NCBI GenBank assembly: GCA_963848295.1
Contig: CAWKDB010000010.1
Coordinates: 2,368,001 to 2,432,000, forward strand
DNA: 64,000 bases
Source of the DNA: an uncultured delta proteobacterium
GTDB lineage: Bacteria > Myxococcota_A > Polyangia > Haliangiales > Haliangiaceae
Reading direction: 5' to 3'
The notes under the pieces: generated by a model
The model's input: only the letters and a program-made list of their open reading frames with translations
What the model was told of the DNA's origin: nothing
Databases searched by the model: none
Made by a program: the position numbers and the translations under genes
In this document: one piece after another, positions 5,747 through 13,331 of the stretch
Layout: every line of letters begins with the position of its first letter
Numbering within the stretch: the first letter of the stretch is position 1

Positions 5747-5917
5747 CTAACGCGGCTTCGCCAGGATTCGGCACAGCTCGCTGATCGCGGCCATCTCGCG
5801 AAGTCGTGCCGCGACGCCGTTCGGCGTCATGTCGACCCCGCGCTGCATCGGAGAGGTCTCGACCGCGCTGCGTCTCGCGACCTCGAGCAGCCTCGCGCCG
5901 ACGGCTTCAGGTGTCAT
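5747..5917 (-). CDS. 56-aa small protein with internal tandem repeat, coupled to the nucleotidyltransferase
   Basis: Manual translation MTPEAVGARLLEVARRSAVETSPMQRGVDMTPNGVAARLREMAAISELCRILAKPR; start overlaps the 3' end of the upstream gene; below the ORF-track size cutoff. Confidence 0.6.
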   Translation of the reverse strand: MTPEAVGARLLEVARRSAVETSPMQRGVDMTPNGVAARLREMAAISELCRILAKPR

Positions 5918-6389
5918 CGCCACCATAGGCGACCTCCTGGAGTCGCTGGATATCGACGATGTCTTGCGGCCGCCCGGCGGCGAGCTTCGACGTGATCAGA
6001 CCCTCGCGAGACACGACCGAGAGCTCGCGAACAACCCCATCGGGCGACGCGAACGCGACGCGCGAGCGCGTCCGCCACGCCGAGTCGACGCTCCCCTCGG
6101 CATGGAGCACGTCGAGCATCAGGGTCCGGCCATCGGTCTCGACCTTGGTGAACCGTTGAATCGAGACCCCGCTCGCGAATGTCCTCGGCAGCGCGTCGAG
6201 CGTGAAGCCGCACGATCGCGCCACCTCGCGAAGGCGCGGAACGTCAGCGGCACGGGCGAGAACATCGATGTCCATCGTGGCGCGCGGCGCCCCGTGGATC
6301 GCGAGCGCGATACCGCCGCAGATCGCGTAGTCGATCGCGGCCGCATCGAGTGCGGTCGTCAGAGCCACGACTTCGCCGAACAGATCCAC
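5907..6389 (-). CDS. Minimal nucleotidyltransferase family protein
   Basis: YAICGGIALAIHGAPRATMDIDVL (GG..DxD Pol-beta-like motif); C-terminal K..AGRPQDIVDI. GTG 6389 is preceded by TAAGCT-N7. Confidence 0.85.
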   Translation of the reverse strand: MDLFGEVVALTTALDAAAIDYAICGGIALAIHGAPRATMDIDVLARAADVPRLREVARSCGFTLDALPRTFASGVSIQRFTKVETDGRTLMLDVLHAEGSVDSAWRTRSRVAFASPDGVVRELSVVSREGLITSKLAAGRPQDIVDIQRLQEVAYGGDDT

Positions 6390-6471
6390 GAGATTTAGCT
6401 TAGCGAAGCGCGAGCCACCCGAGATGACGTAACCCGCTTGACCGCCGTCGCGGTCGGGGTGAAAAGACCGC

Positions 6472-7665
6472 ATGACTCGCATCACCGCCGGCTGGATCCT
6501 CGCGTTCGCTGCCTGCGGCGGTGGCCATGCAACCAGCGACGCGCCGAACGGCGGTGACTCGCACGCGGTCGATGGCGCGACCGGCGATGCCGGCTGCGGC
6601 CGCGTTGCCGCGCCCGTCGATCGCGTCCGCCGGGTCGTGATCTCGCATCCGTACGACGCGGCGAGCGACGAAGCGAACGCGTGGGAGGTGCTCGACCTGT
6701 CGACCGCCGGCGTGCTGACCCGCCCGAACCGCACGTTCACGATGGGCCGCGCGACCGACGGCGTGATGGCGTTTACCCCGGACGGCGAGATCGGCGTCGT
6801 CGCGCAAGAGGACGGCTCGCTCGGGGTCGTCCAGCTCGCGAGCGACGGCACGCCTACGGTGATCGCCGCGGCGTTCACCGGCAGCTTCTATGCGACCGGG
6901 GTCGCGATGGCGCCGTCCGGAGATCGGGTGTACGTGCTCGACGGCAACACGCGCGACAACGGCGGCGGCATCTACGCGGTCGACATCGCGTGCGACGGCA
7001 GCGTCACCGACGCCGGGCTCGTCGCGGCCGCGAAGCTTCCCGGCGGGCTCGCGTTCGTGCCGGGGAGCGACCGAGCGGTGGTCGCTGCGAGCGACTTCCT
7101 GACCTCGACCGCCGGCGACAGCGCGCACCTCGTCACGCTCGGCGCCACGCCGACCTGGATCGGCGGCGCGAACGCATTCGGCGACGCCATGGCGATCATC
7201 GGCGGCACGACGCTGACCGCCGACGCGGGGCACTTCTTGATCGGCGACAATAGCCAGTTCTCGGGGATTCCGAATCGCGTCGCGGTGGTCTCGGTGAGCG
7301 CGGATGCGGTGGCTGCGGTGACCGTGATCGCGAACGTCGGCGACCCCGAGGCGATCGTCGCGTCGCCATTCGGTGATGTCGCGCTCGTCAGCGATGGGTT
7401 CGGCAACGCGTTCCACGTGCTCGATGTCGGCGGCGCCGGCTGGGAGCTGCGCGGTGACGTGACGTATGTCGGTGCGGCGCCACAGCTACCCGCGGGCGCG
7501 GTCGAGATCACGGCCGGAATGCTCGCCGGCACCGCGCTCGTCGCCGAGAACCTCGGCGTGCGGATCGCGACGTTCGGTCGAGACGGCTCGGTCACCGATC
7601 ACGGCGCGTTCGCGCTCGGCAGCGGCACCGAGAACATCACCGGCGCGATCGGCGTCACTCCGTGA
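6472..7665 (+). CDS. Beta-propeller (YncE/lactonase-like) lipoprotein
   Basis: FAAC lipobox; repeated AFTPDG / AMAPSGDRVYVLD / AFVPGSD / VASPFGD blades. Confidence 0.7.
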   Translation: MTRITAGWILAFAACGGGHATSDAPNGGDSHAVDGATGDAGCGRVAAPVDRVRRVVISHPYDAASDEANAWEVLDLSTAGVLTRPNRTFTMGRATDGVMAFTPDGEIGVVAQEDGSLGVVQLASDGTPTVIAAAFTGSFYATGVAMAPSGDRVYVLDGNTRDNGGGIYAVDIACDGSVTDAGLVAAAKLPGGLAFVPGSDRAVVAASDFLTSTAGDSAHLVTLGATPTWIGGANAFGDAMAIIGGTTLTADAGHFLIGDNSQFSGIPNRVAVVSVSADAVAAVTVIANVGDPEAIVASPFGDVALVSDGFGNAFHVLDVGGAGWELRGDVTYVGAAPQLPAGAVEITAGMLAGTALVAENLGVRIATFGRDGSVTDHGAFALGSGTENITGAIGVTP

Positions 7666-10070
7666 TCGTCAAGCCGCTGCGGGTCGCGCTGGGCGCAGCG
7701 GTCATCGCGGCGATCTTCGCCGCGGGCGCGCTCGCGGTGAACCCGGTGCCGCACGCGATCCTCGCCGCGGTCGGCGGCGGCACAGCGTTCGAGCGCGAGG
7801 GCGGTCTGCGCCTCGAGTGGCAGCCGCCGCCGGGCGGCGTCACCCGGCCGATCCTCTTGGGCAACAACGTCGCGGTGCACGATGGCGATCACCGCATCGT
7901 CATCGAGATTCCAGGCGTCGCGAAGGCCGATGTCGCCCACACCGCCGACATCGTGATGTCGGGCGGCATGCAGATGCGCCTCGAGCTCGAGACGAACGAC
8001 ATCGTCAAGCTCGCCGAGGCCGCGGGCATCACCAACAGCCACGGGCCCGTCACGTTCGAGCCCGAGACCTGGCTCCCCGAGACGAGCGACCAACAACATA
8101 CCGCCTACGCGCTCGTAGGGTCCGACCGCGCTTCGATCGAGGCGGTCGTGGCGAGCGCGCGCGCCGCGGGATGGCGTCAGCCGCCCGATGGCGAGCTCGT
8201 GCTCGAGCATTCCATCGGCGAGCACGATCGGAGCCGGTGGATCGCCCATCTGCTGTCGACCGAGGTCCTGGTCGACGACACGATGCTGGAGTCGGCGTCC
8301 ACCGGCTTCGACCCGCTGACCGATCGTCCGATCGTCATGCTCGAGTTCACGCGGGCCGGCGGCGAGCGATTTGGCGACGTCACCGAGCGCTTCTCCGGTC
8401 ACAAGTTCGCGATCGTCGTTGGCCGAGAGATCGTCTCGGACCCCGTGATCAACGGCCGGATCGGGGGCGGCCGCTGTTCGATCACGATGGGCGGCGGCCA
8501 TTCGATCGACGAGCTCGAGGCCGACGCCGATCGGCTCGTGCATGCGCTGTCCGCGGGCAGCTTGCCACCGGGCGGCACGCTCGTGTCCGCGAGCTACGTC
8601 GCGCCGACCCGCGGAGGTGCCGAGACGATCGGCGCGATCGCGACCGCGGCGCTGGCGGCGCTGATAGCGGCGCTGCTCGCCTGGTTCGCGGTAAAGCTCG
8701 CGCGGCCCGCGTGGGCACCGTTCGCGCCGCGGTCCGCAGGCGCGCGACCCTGGCTTCGCCTCGCGACGATGCTCGGCGTCGTGATCGTCGTCTACTTCGG
8801 CATCGACCTGACCTTGCCGATCGTGGACCGGCAGGAGCTGCTCCATCTTGTCTACGGTCCGGACCGCGACCCGTCGCTCGTCCGCGGGAGTCTATTCGCG
8901 CTGGGCGTGTTCCCGGTGATCACCGCAGCCATCGCGGTCGAGTTGCTCGTACTCGCCGTGCCGGCATGGCGCCCGCTACGCACGCGAAGCCCGCAAGACC
9001 GACGCCGGATCGCGTGGGCGATCGCGGCGGTCGCGATCGCGCTCGCGCTCGTCCAGGGTTACGCGCACGTCGACATGCTCCAGCAGCTCGGGTTCCGCGG
9101 CCCGACCCTGGTCGACCAGGGCTTGCTCGTGCGGATCGAGGGCGCGCTATCTCTCGCCGGAGGCACGATGATGATCGTGCTGCTCGCGGCGCTGATCGCG
9201 AGCTTCGGCCTCGGCAATGGCTACGCCGCGATCGTGGCGATCACGTGGGCGTTGCGCCTGGTGGCCATCGCTCGCACCTGCTCGCTCGACTCGCATCAAG
9301 TCGCGCTCGCGGTCGGCGCGCTCGTGACGATCGCTGCGCTCACCGCGACGTTCTTACGCTGGCGCATCGCCCGCGACCAGGAGGTTCCGCTCGCGCTGCC
9401 GAGCTCGGGCATGATCTCGATCTTCCCGGCGGGCGGGTTGTTCGCGGTGATCGGGATCGTGACCGGGCTCGACCTGTGGTCCCGCACGGTCGCGCGCGTC
9501 TACGACGCGACCTACGAGCTCACGTGGAGAGTGTCGGCGGTCGTGGTCATAGCGGTCGGGTTCGGCGCACTGTGGTCGCTGGCGTTCACCCGACCGGGCG
9601 CGCTCGCGAAGCTGGCCGGTCGCGCGAGCCTCGCTCCGCCGGCGTGGAGCAGCTGGTGGCGCGCCACGGCGCTGTCATGCGCCTGGCTGATCGCGATAGC
9701 CGCGATCATCATCGCGGTCGCGCGTTGGACGATCCCGCCGCTCGTGTTCGAGGGGCTGACGACCGTGATCGCGACGGCGACCGCGCTCGATCTCGTCGCC
9801 GATTGGCGCGGCCGGCGCGGGGCGATGGTGGCGGTGTGGTCGCTGCACGATGCGCAGCACGTCGAGCTCGCGCGCAGCGTGCTCGCGACCGGCGGCGTGC
9901 GCAGTCACGTCAGCGCGACGCACGTGCGCGCGTTGTTCGCGCTGTTCGGCCCGTGGGCGCCGATGACCGTGTACGTCGCGCGCGACGACGCGAAGCGAGC
10001 GACCGAGCTCCTGCTCGCGCTGTTCGACGACCGCCGGCCGCCGCCGAACGTCGAGCAGGCGTTCGCCTGA
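7662..10070 (+). CDS. Chimeric membrane protein: SecD/SecF P1-head domain + SecY-like TM region + DUF2007-like C-terminus
   Basis: RPIVMLEFTRAGGERFGDVTERFSGHKFAIVVGREIVSDPVINGRIGGG..ALSAGSLP (SecD P1 head); SLFALGVFPVITAAIAVELL, LALVQG, LAGGTMMIVLLAALIASFGLGNGYA (SecY TM2-TM5-like); VELARSVLATGGVRSHV..LFALFGP..TVYV (DUF2007-like). Confidence 0.75.
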   Translation: MIVKPLRVALGAAVIAAIFAAGALAVNPVPHAILAAVGGGTAFEREGGLRLEWQPPPGGVTRPILLGNNVAVHDGDHRIVIEIPGVAKADVAHTADIVMSGGMQMRLELETNDIVKLAEAAGITNSHGPVTFEPETWLPETSDQQHTAYALVGSDRASIEAVVASARAAGWRQPPDGELVLEHSIGEHDRSRWIAHLLSTEVLVDDTMLESASTGFDPLTDRPIVMLEFTRAGGERFGDVTERFSGHKFAIVVGREIVSDPVINGRIGGGRCSITMGGGHSIDELEADADRLVHALSAGSLPPGGTLVSASYVAPTRGGAETIGAIATAALAALIAALLAWFAVKLARPAWAPFAPRSAGARPWLRLATMLGVVIVVYFGIDLTLPIVDRQELLHLVYGPDRDPSLVRGSLFALGVFPVITAAIAVELLVLAVPAWRPLRTRSPQDRRRIAWAIAAVAIALALVQGYAHVDMLQQLGFRGPTLVDQGLLVRIEGALSLAGGTMMIVLLAALIASFGLGNGYAAIVAITWALRLVAIARTCSLDSHQVALAVGALVTIAALTATFLRWRIARDQEVPLALPSSGMISIFPAGGLFAVIGIVTGLDLWSRTVARVYDATYELTWRVSAVVVIAVGFGALWSLAFTRPGALAKLAGRASLAPPAWSSWWRATALSCAWLIAIAAIIIAVARWTIPPLVFEGLTTVIATATALDLVADWRGRRGAMVAVWSLHDAQHVELARSVLATGGVRSHVSATHVRALFALFGPWAPMTVYVARDDAKRATELLLALFDDRRPPPNVEQAFA

Positions 10071-10083
10071 GCTCCGCGGCGCG

Positions 10084-10782
10084 CTAGAACAGCTCGCCTT
10101 GCGGCTTCGCCGGTTCGACGACCGGCTCGATGCACCGCGGATCGTCGTGGTCGGCCTTGTTGACCCAGGTCGAGACCTGGTCGGCGTACCAATCGCCGAC
10201 CTCGGGGACCCCGAGCAGCGCGTGAGCGCCCGCCGCGTCGAGCGCGGGATCGAGCCATGCCGCGTACAGCGACGGCTCGAGCAGCACGGGCATCCGATCG
10301 TGGATCGGCGCGACGAGCGGATTCGCCGGCCCGGTCACGATCGAAAAGCTCGTCACGTCGCCCGCGCGCATCCAGATCCCGGCGAACGCGACGTGCCGGC
10401 CGCGCCGCGGATGAAAGTACATCGGCAGTGCGAGCTTGCCCGCGCGTCTCCACTCGAAGAACCCGTTCGCCGCGACGAGACAGCGCCGGCGCGCGAGCGC
10501 GTCGCGAAACATCGGCTTGGCATCGAGCGATTCGACGCGCGTGTTGATCATCAACGGCGGCTTCTTGCCGCTGCCCGGCTTCGCCCAGTGCGGCACGAGC
10601 CCCCACCGCATGAGCTCGAGCACGCGCGCGCCATCGCGCAGCGTCACCACCGGTGCCGGTTGCGTCGGCGCGACGTTGAACCGCGACTTCCACCACTCGC
10701 TCTCGGTCGCGCCCGGCGCGATCGCGGCTTCGAGGTCGGAGGCGACCTCGTCGGGACTCATCACGGTGTAGCGACCGCACAT
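10084..10782 (-). CDS. yedK: SOS response-associated peptidase (SRAP/YedK/HMCES abasic-site crosslink protein)
   Basis: MCGRY N-terminus (catalytic Cys2), FNVAPTQ, RWGLVP, RRCLVAANGFFEW, IHDRMPV. Confidence 0.93.
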   Translation of the reverse strand: MCGRYTVMSPDEVASDLEAAIAPGATESEWWKSRFNVAPTQPAPVVTLRDGARVLELMRWGLVPHWAKPGSGKKPPLMINTRVESLDAKPMFRDALARRRCLVAANGFFEWRRAGKLALPMYFHPRRGRHVAFAGIWMRAGDVTSFSIVTGPANPLVAPIHDRMPVLLEPSLYAAWLDPALDAAGAHALLGVPEVGDWYADQVSTWVNKADHDDPRCIEPVVEPAKPQGELF

Positions 10783-10827: not shown

Positions 10828-11991
10828 TCAGCCGAGGCGGAGCACGCAGACCTGCAAGTAGCGGTCGCGCGGCTGAGCGACGAGCGTCGGATACTCCGGG
10901 GGCAAGCCGCCCTGCTCGAGGATCGCGGCCGGTCGGCCGGCGAGGCCCTTGTGCGCGAGCTTGCTCAGCGACGCGAGCTCGTGCGTGTTCGCCGCGAGCC
11001 ACAGCACGCCGCCGTCGGGGACGACCGCCGCCGCTTGCTTGATCAGCGCGGGATAATCGCGGTCGAGCGTCCACGGCTGGCCGCGCGCGGTCGAGAACGT
11101 CGGTGGATCGATGATGACGAGATCGTAGTGCTCGCGATCGCGTGCCGCGCGCGCGAGGTAGCGCACCGCATCGCCGGTCTCGAACCGCCACCGATCGCCG
11201 GTCAGGTTCGAGCGACCGAAGTTCGAGCGGGCCCACGCGGCGACGCCCGGCGACGTATCGACGCTCGTCACCGCCCGTGCTCCCGCTCGCGCGCACGCGA
11301 CGCTGAGCGCGCCGGTGTACGAAAACAGATTGAGCACGCGGCGTCCGCCGGCGAACCGCGCCAAGCCACGGCGCTGCTCGCGCATGTCGGTGAACAGGCC
11401 GGTGTTGAGCCCGCCCAGCGGATGGACCTCGAACGGCACGCCGTGCTCGGTCACGACGTACGCGTCGTCGGGCGAGCGACCGACGAGGTCTTGCGCGACC
11501 TCGGCCGCGCCGCCCCGCGCGCGCAGCTTGACGACCGCGCCGTCGAGCTTGGCGAATCCGACGATCGCCTCGGCGAGCTGGCGGCCGAGCGCGCGCAAGC
11601 CCTCGCCGTAGACGTAAACGATCGCGGTCTTGCCGAGCACGTCGCATGCGAAGCCCGGCACGCCATCGCCGGCTCCGTGGAGCAAGCGATACGCGTGATC
11701 GACGCCGGGCAAGTCGAGCTGGGTGCGCCAGGCGAGCGCGCGTTCGACGCGCAGCGCGAGCAAGGCTCCGCCGATCGCCGGCAAGCCGTCCGCGGGTACC
11801 GCGAGCACGCGCAACTTCGCGTTGCCGAGATCGGCGATCGCGAGGCCGAGCTCGTCGCCGTTGCCATCGACGAGCTGGACGTGCTCGCCATCGCCGAGCG
11901 CCGCGGCGCCGTCGAGGCGCGCGAGCTCGAGATCGCGCCCACCGCCGGCGAGAAACTGCGCCGCCGCGCCGGCGAGCGCGAGTGACTTCAT
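10828..11991 (-). CDS. Class I SAM-dependent rRNA methyltransferase (RlmI/RlmK-like)
   Basis: YRLLHGAGDGVPG, NTGLFTDMREQR, VLNLFSYTGA, YDLVIIDPPTF. Start ATG 11991 overlaps the upstream stop. Confidence 0.88.
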   Translation of the reverse strand: MKSLALAGAAAQFLAGGGRDLELARLDGAAALGDGEHVQLVDGNGDELGLAIADLGNAKLRVLAVPADGLPAIGGALLALRVERALAWRTQLDLPGVDHAYRLLHGAGDGVPGFACDVLGKTAIVYVYGEGLRALGRQLAEAIVGFAKLDGAVVKLRARGGAAEVAQDLVGRSPDDAYVVTEHGVPFEVHPLGGLNTGLFTDMREQRRGLARFAGGRRVLNLFSYTGALSVACARAGARAVTSVDTSPGVAAWARSNFGRSNLTGDRWRFETGDAVRYLARAARDREHYDLVIIDPPTFSTARGQPWTLDRDYPALIKQAAAVVPDGGVLWLAANTHELASLSKLAHKGLAGRPAAILEQGGLPPEYPTLVAQPRDRYLQVCVLRLG

Positions 11992-13331
11992 TGCGTCGGC
12001 GGGGTCGCGCTCGAGACGAGCAGCGACATGCCGTTGCCCACCCGCACCGAGCCCGGCGCGAGCGAGGTGAGCACGCTGCCCGTGGTGCGGAACGCGTTCG
12101 CGTCGGTCGCGACCGTGCCGCCATAGGCGGCGAGCGAGCCGGTCAGCGCCGGCGCGGCGCCCGGTAGGTACGCCGCGAGCCCCGACGGTAGCTGGGGCGG
12201 TGCGAGCGCGGTCTGCGTGGCGCCGGGCGCGAACGAGATGCCGACCTGCGTCGGGTTCCCGCCGGCGTTCGCGTACGACAGGCTCGCGTACATGCCGAGC
12301 ACCGGCGTGGTGTACGCGGTCCAACCTACCGCCGGCAGGCCATCGGCGGCCGGCGTGAGCGTGACACCGGTGATGAACGGCAGCGCGTCGGCCGTGAGGT
12401 TGATCGCGTCAGCCGGCAGATCGTTCGAGCCCTTGTAGATGCCGGTCGTCGCGGTCGCGTCCTGCGACTGCACGATCAGCGACTCGTGATAGCCGGTCCA
12501 CAGGACCTGCGGCTCGGGGAACGTGAACAGCGGCCCTTGCGGCACCGCGCCGCCCTGTACCGCATCCGGCACGAACTCGGCGTTGCCGTTGCGGTCGGTG
12601 ATCTGCGCCGTGATCATGCCCGCGGTCGCGGGTGGACTCGCGATGGTGATCGTCGCGGAGTCGAGCGTGGTGACGAACGCGTTCGCGGTGAACATGCCGG
12701 TCGTGTTCGCCGCCGGCGGCATCTGGGCGAGCAGCGTCGAGGTCGCGATCAGCGCGCCGGTCGTGTCGTACGCGGTCACGAGGATCGCGATGTCGCCGTT
12801 CGGGTCGAGGCAAGTGCTGTCGAGCGGCAGGTCGAACGCGGTCCCGATCGTGACAGCCACCGGGCCGCTCGCGCAGCCGGCGCTGCCCATGTACGTCACG
12901 CCGCCGGTGGTGGCGGCCGGCGGGGTGACGATCGCCGTGCCGTACGGGACGATCGCCGTGCCACTCGGGCCGATCAACAGATCGTCGTTGGCCTGCACGC
13001 CCATGATGATCGCGACGGTATCGGCGATCGCCGTGCCGGACTTCGGGATCGCCACCGCGACGCTGCCGCCGAGGGGCACCATCGCGGCCGCCTTGCCGCC
13101 GGCATCGGTCGTGACCATCGTGGTCGGTGTGCCACTGGCATCGGCGAACGACACCATCGCGTTCGCATTCGGTCCGGCGATGCCGCCGAGGTTCTGCACC
13201 GTGATGGTCACGGGGACCAACATGGCGTCGACCGGCGCGTCGGTGCCGCCATCGGGCCGGTTTTGGGCCGGTGGCGTCTTCCCGGCGCACCCGCACGCGA
13301 GACATACCCCGAGCAGTGTAGTCCGCTTCAT
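11988..13331 (-). CDS. Hypothetical acidic, Thr/Ala-rich lipoprotein
   Basis: Short signal with Cys (CLACGC); beta-rich composition; TACGCT-N7-ATG. Confidence 0.65.
   Translation of the reverse strand: MKRTTLLGVCLACGCAGKTPPAQNRPDGGTDAPVDAMLVPVTITVQNLGGIAGPNANAMVSFADASGTPTTMVTTDAGGKAAAMVPLGGSVAVAIPKSGTAIADTVAIIMGVQANDDLLIGPSGTAIVPYGTAIVTPPAATTGGVTYMGSAGCASGPVAVTIGTAFDLPLDSTCLDPNGDIAILVTAYDTTGALIATSTLLAQMPPAANTTGMFTANAFVTTLDSATITIASPPATAGMITAQITDRNGNAEFVPDAVQGGAVPQGPLFTFPEPQVLWTGYHESLIVQSQDATATTGIYKGSNDLPADAINLTADALPFITGVTLTPAADGLPAVGWTAYTTPVLGMYASLSYANAGGNPTQVGISFAPGATQTALAPPQLPSGLAAYLPGAAPALTGSLAAYGGTVATDANAFRTTGSVLTSLAPGSVRVGNGMSLLVSSATPPTQ

Follow-up and report, generated by a model that had tools for sequence, protein, structure and literature searches.

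This study concerns a window of 64,000 nucleotides from an uncultured delta proteobacterium of the Haliangiaceae (assembly GCA_963848295.1, contig CAWKDB010000010.1, positions 2,368,001 to 2,432,000), in which an open reading frame (ORF) at 7662-10070 of the forward strand was observed to join parts of two translocon subunits. It is a single frame of 802 codons with a stop-free translation of 802 aa, and its GC content per codon position (0.71/0.52/0.90) is of the coding type. The product consists of a P1 domain of SecD with the transmembrane segments that flank it (TM1 and TM2), a degenerate ten-TM paralog of SecY, referred to here as SecY*, and a DUF2007-like tail. Family-average hydropathy predicted 12 membrane segments, two flanking P1 and ten in the SecY part (aa 367-712). 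An earlier examination of the letters alone (the sequence-only reading) had proposed one intact frame with an N-terminal TM and had quoted several motifs; all of these motifs were found in the translation, and a hydrophobic segment is present at aa 8-26 (7683-7739), which by its position would be SecD TM1. A scan for promoters and terminators found none.

The SecD-derived part was recognized by several comparisons. Pfam SecDF_P1_head (PF22599) matched aa 195-302 (8244-8567) with 62.6 bits against a cut-off of 27, the NCBIfam secD model TIGR01129 matched aa 70-339 far below its equivalog cut-off, and hhalign of this part with the genome's own SecD gave a probability of 100. Judged by these matches, the part is a P1 domain, base and head, between its flanking TM1 and TM2; the P1 head proposed earlier was thus found, though the SecD-derived stretch extends beyond it to the whole of P1 and both helices. 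The periplasmic domain (aa ~44-312, 7791-8597) has a shortened base and carries the insertion seen in the SecDs of this lineage (W.PE..D..H motif), and the second hydrophobic segment (aa 326-344, 8637-8693), aligned to SecD TM2 by hydropathy and hhalign, would lead the chain back to the cytoplasm. Though P1, its helices and the insertion are shared with SecD and SecDF, the paralog has neither their TM3-TM6 core, nor their TM4 Asp motif, nor an adjacent secF. The Asp motif is present in 13 of 14 SecDs but in 0 of 127 family rows; nor did a profile of the SecD core, 174 positions long, match the family at a domain E<0.01. With this core and motif missing, there is no proton-driven motor, in agreement with the earlier remark that the proton-conducting core of SecDF is not recognizable here. 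In the alignment, 'TLPG' of SecD falls where SecY* TM1 ends; this was considered as a crossover point and dismissed as a coincidence, because P1-less and P1-last forms share the same TM1.

The SecY-derived part (aa ~364-714, 8751-9803) shares 24% identity with the housekeeping SecY of the same genome. Pfam SecY (PF00344) matched aa 410-640 with 64.9 bits (cut-off 32.2), and the NCBIfam secY match at aa 407-538 stayed far below the equivalog cut-off, with 61 bits as against 253.6 for TIGR00967. A 127-row family profile aligned with E. coli SecY over residues 21-421 (E 1.5e-37), interrupted by three clean gaps, one at the plug (58-67), one at loop 6/7 (about 246-260) and one at loop 8/9 (351-361), the E. 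coli numbers being counted by hand from the profile alignment. Comparison with a profile of 20 SecYs (19 housekeeping SecYs and the divergent record L055) gave a probability of 99.85 over 348 columns. Scored with the family profile, the SecYs of the lineage reach 145-169 bits and native E. coli SecY about 132. The sequence-only reading had recognized only the N-terminal half of SecY, followed by further divergent TMs. That restriction was rejected on the full-length profile alignments and the ten hydrophobic segments; the divergent TMs do exist, and from hydropathy and these alignments they are SecY TM6-TM10. On this evidence all ten helices of SecY are kept in order in the paralog, which also shares with housekeeping SecY the G-x-x-P of TM2b, the Gln of TM3, the G-x-G-N-G of TM5, the G-x-x-P of TM7, the Pro of TM8 and the Asp of TM10.

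The losses were measured in a single alignment, which combines 171 family segments having both the TM1 start and the tail (198 before removal of duplicates) with 21 housekeeping SecYs. For the plug span the median is 20 residues in the family as against 34 in the housekeeping proteins, and only one of the 171 reaches the canonical length. In the 802-aa protein the shortened plug region (aa 386-410, 8817-8891) leaves 23 residues between the anchors in place of 34, and E. coli SecY 58-67 has no counterpart. Loop 6/7 (C4) is reduced to a median of 17 residues from 35, here to a remnant of 17 at aa 566-583 (9357-9410), and loop 8/9 (C5) to a median of 21 from 32, here to a remnant of 21 at aa 645-667 (9594-9662) from which GIRPG, with E. 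coli R357, is gone. All other spans differ by 0-4 residues between the two groups. GIRPG and the motif R[RK][IV]P[VI].Y are each found in 0/171 family segments and in 21/21 housekeeping SecYs. The binding of SecA and the ribosome has been mapped to loops 6/7 and 8/9 in passages of PMC8082313 and PMC6028853, and parts of 10.1101/2020.12.20.422553 and PMC6028853 report that a SecY without its plug is tolerated and can form a pseudo-plug. Such a pseudo-plug may also exist in the shortened plug region of SecY*.

Despite these losses the residues of the channel core are largely kept, namely, in E. coli numbers, G81 (99%), P84 (95%), Q131 (89%), G182 (98%), N185 (89%), G186 (99%), P276 (86%) and D415 (92%), and the N-half (TM2b-TM5) is the most conserved stretch of the SecY part. 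At the positions which we take to be the pore ring, 82, 86, 191 and 408 are mostly I/L/V, and an aromatic residue stands at 187 in 110 of 125 proteins chosen independently of that motif; in the 802-aa protein it is Y521, within the G-L-G-N-G-Y that opens TM5 (9207-9224). In the housekeeping SecYs of this lineage, Ser was noticed at I187 in 17 of 21 (L091-L110 and the source genome's own copy at C11:521917-523248). The family also has residues of its own, fixed at 92-99% in the alignment. TM2b and loop C2 (8940-9002) carry the signature E427, P434, R437, R440 and R447, in which E427 takes the place of a Gln present in 21/21 housekeeping SecYs (Q93 to E), and the new residues E427, R437, R440, R447, P580 and R756 are nearly fixed in all three architectures of the family. 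Compared with housekeeping SecY, therefore, the paralog has a short plug and short loops 6/7 and 8/9, lacks GIRPG, has changed Q93 to Glu and I187 to an aromatic residue, has lost I278, and is a patchily distributed, fast-evolving protein outside the spc operon with P1 and a tail fused to it.

The tail is cytoplasmic by prediction (aa ~722-790, 9825-10031) and has conserved H729, L741, R756 and P767. The likeness to DUF2007 that had been noted holds for the family better than for this protein: Pfam DUF2007 (PF09413) matched the 802-aa protein at aa 722-784 with only 13.3 bits (E 0.094), below the cut-off of 25.7, whereas 19 of 28 family tail segments matched at E<=0.5, the best at 3e-9, and with whole proteins one member (L051) exceeded the cut-off. 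Different from DUF2007 proteins, the family tail stands directly behind SecY TM10 and bears the signature R.L..FFGP..P. A search of the tail profile against the PDB gave no match (best E 1.1), and nothing usable was found when the tail by itself was searched against the ESM Atlas. The dN/dS of 0.05 in the tail, obtained from one pair, makes it the most constrained segment of the protein. Covariation by mutual information with average product correction (275 rows, effective number 184) returned pairs that are mostly lineage-driven; A522-V755, E427-R447, D710-L758 and G518-D714 fit a tail near TM5 and TM10, though they were not counted as evidence.

The profile search was made over 50%-identity representatives, and the best 150 matches were taken. 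Among 157 records, the order P1-SecY-tail was found in 126 (125 distinct, as one row duplicates the query), SecY-tail-P1 in five, SecY-tail without a P1 match in 15 (some truncated), and 11 were partial; the source databases label members 'hypothetical protein' or SecY. At least 56 of the 121 genomes of the window's family contain a member, fragments included (G372 and G377 are unpublished). In the phylum, the tail profile matched 41 of 401 genomes at E<=0.001 with 11 candidates scored per genome, and a SecY N-half match precedes the tail in 20 of the 30 best tail loci, from eight families. The distribution is thus patchy. Close relatives carry the taxon labels Kofleriaceae, Haliangiales or Myxococcota, two named, cultured hosts of the P1-less form are Polyangium sp. 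6x1 and Bradymonas sediminis, and the ESM Atlas holds similar SecY+DUF2007 clusters in Myxococcota and Acidobacteriota, which serve as a lead only. On viral contigs, none of 12 pattern matches is a relative of the family. A quick tree of SecY* has long branches and does not resolve its root or the ancestral fusion order. Tandem copies were observed in L052 (1541-3826 and 3834-6272, forward strand), L152 and G337 (C120); the periplasmic region of the first L052 copy has no P1 match and is apparently decayed or replaced.

This survey bears on the possibility that the fusion is an artefact, either two genes joined by misassembly or a decaying duplicate. The source genome does have other indel-like breaks, its secA lying in three frames, and a few relatives are frameshifted (L162, L163, L194); contigs of the sequencing run X1 cover the fusion gene in pieces, none across the P1-SecY junction, and are uninformative. 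Yet a misjoin is refuted by the 125 distinct full-length proteins that share the order P1-SecY-tail, and intact ORFs of the family occur in many genomes. Against the close relative in L057, dN/dS is 0.26 overall and 0.36 in P1 (one pair), so that the gene is under purifying selection in all its segments (0.05-0.36), and the family-specific residues are fixed as given above. We consider the chance of an artefact or pseudogene to be negligible.

A canonical secY was located elsewhere in the genome, in the spc operon between an rplO-like gene and map (C11:523248-521917), which agrees with the earlier view of the 802-aa product as a repurposed translocon part outside that operon. The genome also has yajC-secD-secF, one secE and one secA locus, all away from the fusion gene, and no second secA or secE was found in this assembly, which is 85% complete. 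The sole secA locus, at C2:1287134-~1290300 of the forward strand, is split over three frames by two indels, which are probably assembly errors. Among 41 genomes of the genus, two secE copies were seen in none and one secE in 23; SecY* probably borrows the single housekeeping SecE. That one secE per genome would need sharing, that SecY without SecE is degraded by FtsH according to part of PMC8082313, and that the fold is kept while the motor sites are lost would all suit a non-conducting regulator or decoy, which might bind SecE, SecG, SecF, YajC or YidC and tune or buffer the housekeeping translocon. We hold this to be very improbable, as it leaves the fixed new residues and the strong constraint on the tail unexplained. 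Moreover, the C4 segment at E. coli SecY E238-G240, presumably a SecE contact, is altered or shifted in the alignments.

The origin of the fused P1 was examined with a careful tree of 35 P1 segments, from which 18 of 53 rows had been omitted (long branches, divergent P1-first rows and three SecDs). In this tree, P1 is placed beside the local SecD: five P1-last proteins, four of them from genomes of the family f3, are sister to an f3-genome SecD (100/97), while a core P1-first group that includes the 802-aa protein stands with the SecD of the window's family and with a free P1 lipoprotein of the genome (95/89). A single clade of all 22 fused P1 domains was rejected (approximately unbiased test, p 0.0002), with a constraint chosen after the quick tree had been viewed. 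These results suggest that the fused P1 was captured more than once, at least twice independently, though gene conversion from the local secD may yield the same tree. By either route, the pairing of P1 with SecY* would have been made or renewed in separate lineages and in both fusion orders, and in both orders a helix would place P1 in the periplasm. Since a passage of PMC7793623 assigns the binding of substrates by SecD to the P1 head, the repeated capture of P1 points to a handling of polypeptides at the periplasmic face.

Free P1 lipoprotein-like genes with no membrane core were also seen in the source genome, at C10:3700621-3702069 (L088), the one grouping with the P1-first fusions, and at C2:~1126290-1127000 (L090), both on the forward strand, and further short P1-head ORFs are present in other genomes of the window's family. 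Among members without P1, a 423-aa form (L039:3998-5269, forward; L066:1519-2790, reverse) occupies the same site, between an ABC-ATPase and a SRAP gene, as does the fusion of this window, which suggests a loss of P1 in place. Other P1-less members (L051:4701-6323, L190 and L191) carry an N-terminal CxxC...CxxC motif resembling a zinc ribbon.

With regard to the neighbourhood, a lipoprotein-like gene of 397 aa (6472-7665, forward) lies directly upstream, and the GTGA overlap with the fusion start that had been reported is present; the beta-propeller label of this gene is that of the sequence-only reading, and the gene has no Pfam, NCBIfam or PADLOC match. The earlier proposal that it is a client or partner is weakly supported. 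Of 64 distinct P1-first genes having at least 300 nt of upstream DNA, five have it immediately before them with the stop/start overlap retained (source genome G000, G382, G409, L153 and L162; fusions 33-73% identical), and because these are so few it is no general partner. An initial impression that the adjacency was limited to one close relative was rejected when three more distant cases were found. The overlap is created by the conserved Pro-stop ending (CCG TGA) by itself. In the window's family, the lipoprotein-like gene is present in 45 of 121 genomes and shows no co-occurrence with the paralog (counts 22/34/23/42, odds ratio 1.18, p 0.71, with kin that are not independent); in the 22 genomes having both, the two are adjacent in three, apart in 18 and at a contig end in one (G377 included). 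All five loci also carry a nucleotidyltransferase gene oriented divergently from the lipoprotein gene, in the window at 5907-6878 (reverse; DUF6036, 29.2 bits; AbiEii-type, 24.9 bits), the true start of which is probably further downstream. Where the flanks reach, the five share one syntenic block from an ABC gene to a SRAP gene, and other loci of the block have neither the lipoprotein nor the nucleotidyltransferase gene. A lineage-limited link of lipoprotein and fusion is possible; a general client is unsupported.

Downstream, a SRAP gene (10084-10782) and a methyltransferase-like gene (10828-12324), the latter assigned from a reading of the sequence, are both on the reverse strand, convergent on the fusion, and mark the block in several relatives. 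A survey of 87 flanking proteins from 62 clusters disclosed no steady partner: no Sec component occurs among the 87, and three are sigma-70 region-4 genes, which leaves a sigma-factor linkage unsupported. Of six proteins searched with the PADLOC models of anti-phage defence, none matched at E<=0.01.

SecY and Sec61 are among the most conserved proteins, and the SecY paralogs that we know of (SecY2, plastid SCY2 and yeast Ssh1) still work with a motor. With the SecA2/SecY2 system the family shares that it is a second, divergent and non-universal SecY copy (10.1101/202358, in part). It differs in that the source genome has no second secA, no secA2, asp or substrate gene occurs among the 87 flanking proteins, the SecY2 model NF009082 scores 20.5 against a cut-off of 353, and the paralog has fused domains. 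The likeness to YidC/Oxa1, as an ungated, plug-less and motor-less membrane core, is one of analogy only, though the halves of SecY are reported to resemble Oxa1-family proteins in a passage of 10.1101/2020.12.20.422553; no YidC match was found in Pfam, NCBIfam or PDB searches, and the core of the paralog is a whole SecY. In the literature, no description of such a paralog was found by title and abstract start, where tables, supplements and closed papers could still mention one, and the matched passages of PMC3924187 hold no mention of SecY. This is a real and apparently undescribed family of SecY paralogs.

Our data suggest that these soil bacteria have put a second, fast-changing SecY to new use. 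As a tentative proposal, to which we give somewhat less than an even chance, SecY* could be an accessory channel for polypeptides, or an insertase, that uses the SecY fold and works independently of a motor. The tail would bend back to cover the cytoplasmic funnel, meeting E427 and the Arg-rich loop C2, and would stand in for SecA or the ribosome both as the gate and as the receptor of substrates, while the aromatic residue at ring position 187 and a short pseudo-plug would prevent leakage through the membrane. The substrates would be few in kind, either short or already membrane-bound polypeptides, and might pass or exit via the lateral gate, with P1 as a passive ratchet or trap that binds the chains in the periplasm; P1-less forms might borrow SecDF or the free P1 lipoproteins.

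Several observations weigh against such a channel. No driving force could be identified, as there is neither a SecA or ribosome site nor a SecDF proton path, and no substrate or partner gene travels with the fusion, the flanking proteins being heterogeneous. P1 is dispensable, since 14 of the 171 segments, scattered over the tree and some of them truncated, have no P1 match. Pore-ring I278 is unconserved and mostly replaced by small residues (A 22%, S 18%, G 11%). As conservation is also poor throughout the C-half of SecY*, a working gated pore stays hypothetical. Across the same 15 genomes housekeeping SecY has a mean identity of 81% and the paralog one of 32%, a loose conservation for transport machinery. 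Furthermore, the loss of R357 alone is no proof of lost ribosome binding, because a double mutant with R357E was still gated by ribosomes (PMC3689939, in part).

It may equally be asked whether this SecY-fold protein stands outside protein export altogether, as a receptor or inward peptide channel in which P1 would be a periplasmic ligand-binding module and the DUF2007-like domain would replace the motors; we treat this as a serious possibility, though not a probable one. In its first form, which taken singly is rather unlikely, the protein would be a transceptor, that is, a non-transporting receptor whose P1 or open funnel binds unfolded envelope polypeptides or peptides, whereupon the halves shift and the tail signals to a cytoplasmic partner. 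The protein lacks both motor loops and has acquired a tail, Pfam describes DUF2007 as a 'putative prokaryotic signal transducing protein', and the tail is the most constrained part. Conservation is centred on the cytoplasmic side (E427, R437, R440, R447, D710, R756), while the periplasmic domain varies or decays, as in the first copy of L052, and some P1-less members start with CxxC..CxxC. On the other hand, no sigma, kinase or regulator gene is a steady neighbour (besides the three sigma-70 genes, a few two-component genes occur among the 87, for which there is no background rate), the DUF2007 label is itself a guess to which the 802-aa protein scores below the cut-off, and the residues of the pore core are retained.

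In its second form, which is improbable, P1 would catch periplasmic peptides or misfolded chains, which would be fed into the cytoplasm by way of the plug-less pore to be taken up or disposed of, the tail handing them over to a protease or chaperone. The missing plug is a periplasmic seal, P1 would be periplasmic in both orders by the predicted topology, and export motors cannot dock. The named hosts are myxobacteria and Bradymonas, which are protein-feeding predators. However, no ATPase or protease gene is linked, the neighbouring ABC transporter belongs to one syntenic block only, and direction cannot be read from a sequence.

Whichever role applies, the family amounts to a natural deletion experiment, in which the plug, the SecA and ribosome loops and the proton core of SecDF are gone and the fold is under selection, and it lets the capability of a motor-free SecY channel be tested directly. 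It also bears on whether P1 alone can act as ratchet or chaperone, the sealing of a plug-less SecY bears on the proposed plug-less proto-SecY, and the family offers a handle on DUF2007.

Two further divergent SecYs were observed in other lineages. A Stellaceae record (L054:6330-7844, forward; also L179 and L180) has, inside the spc operon, a second secY in tandem from which GIRPG is gone and in which loop 6/7 is altered; here a duplicated secY has drifted independently from the binding of motors. Since a GNGY pattern was used to find it, the motif it shares with SecY* is a selected one. In Streptacidiphilus melanogenes (L055:4773-6050, forward), a divergent SecY in a context that does not look like spc has a shortened plug region and keeps GIRPG.

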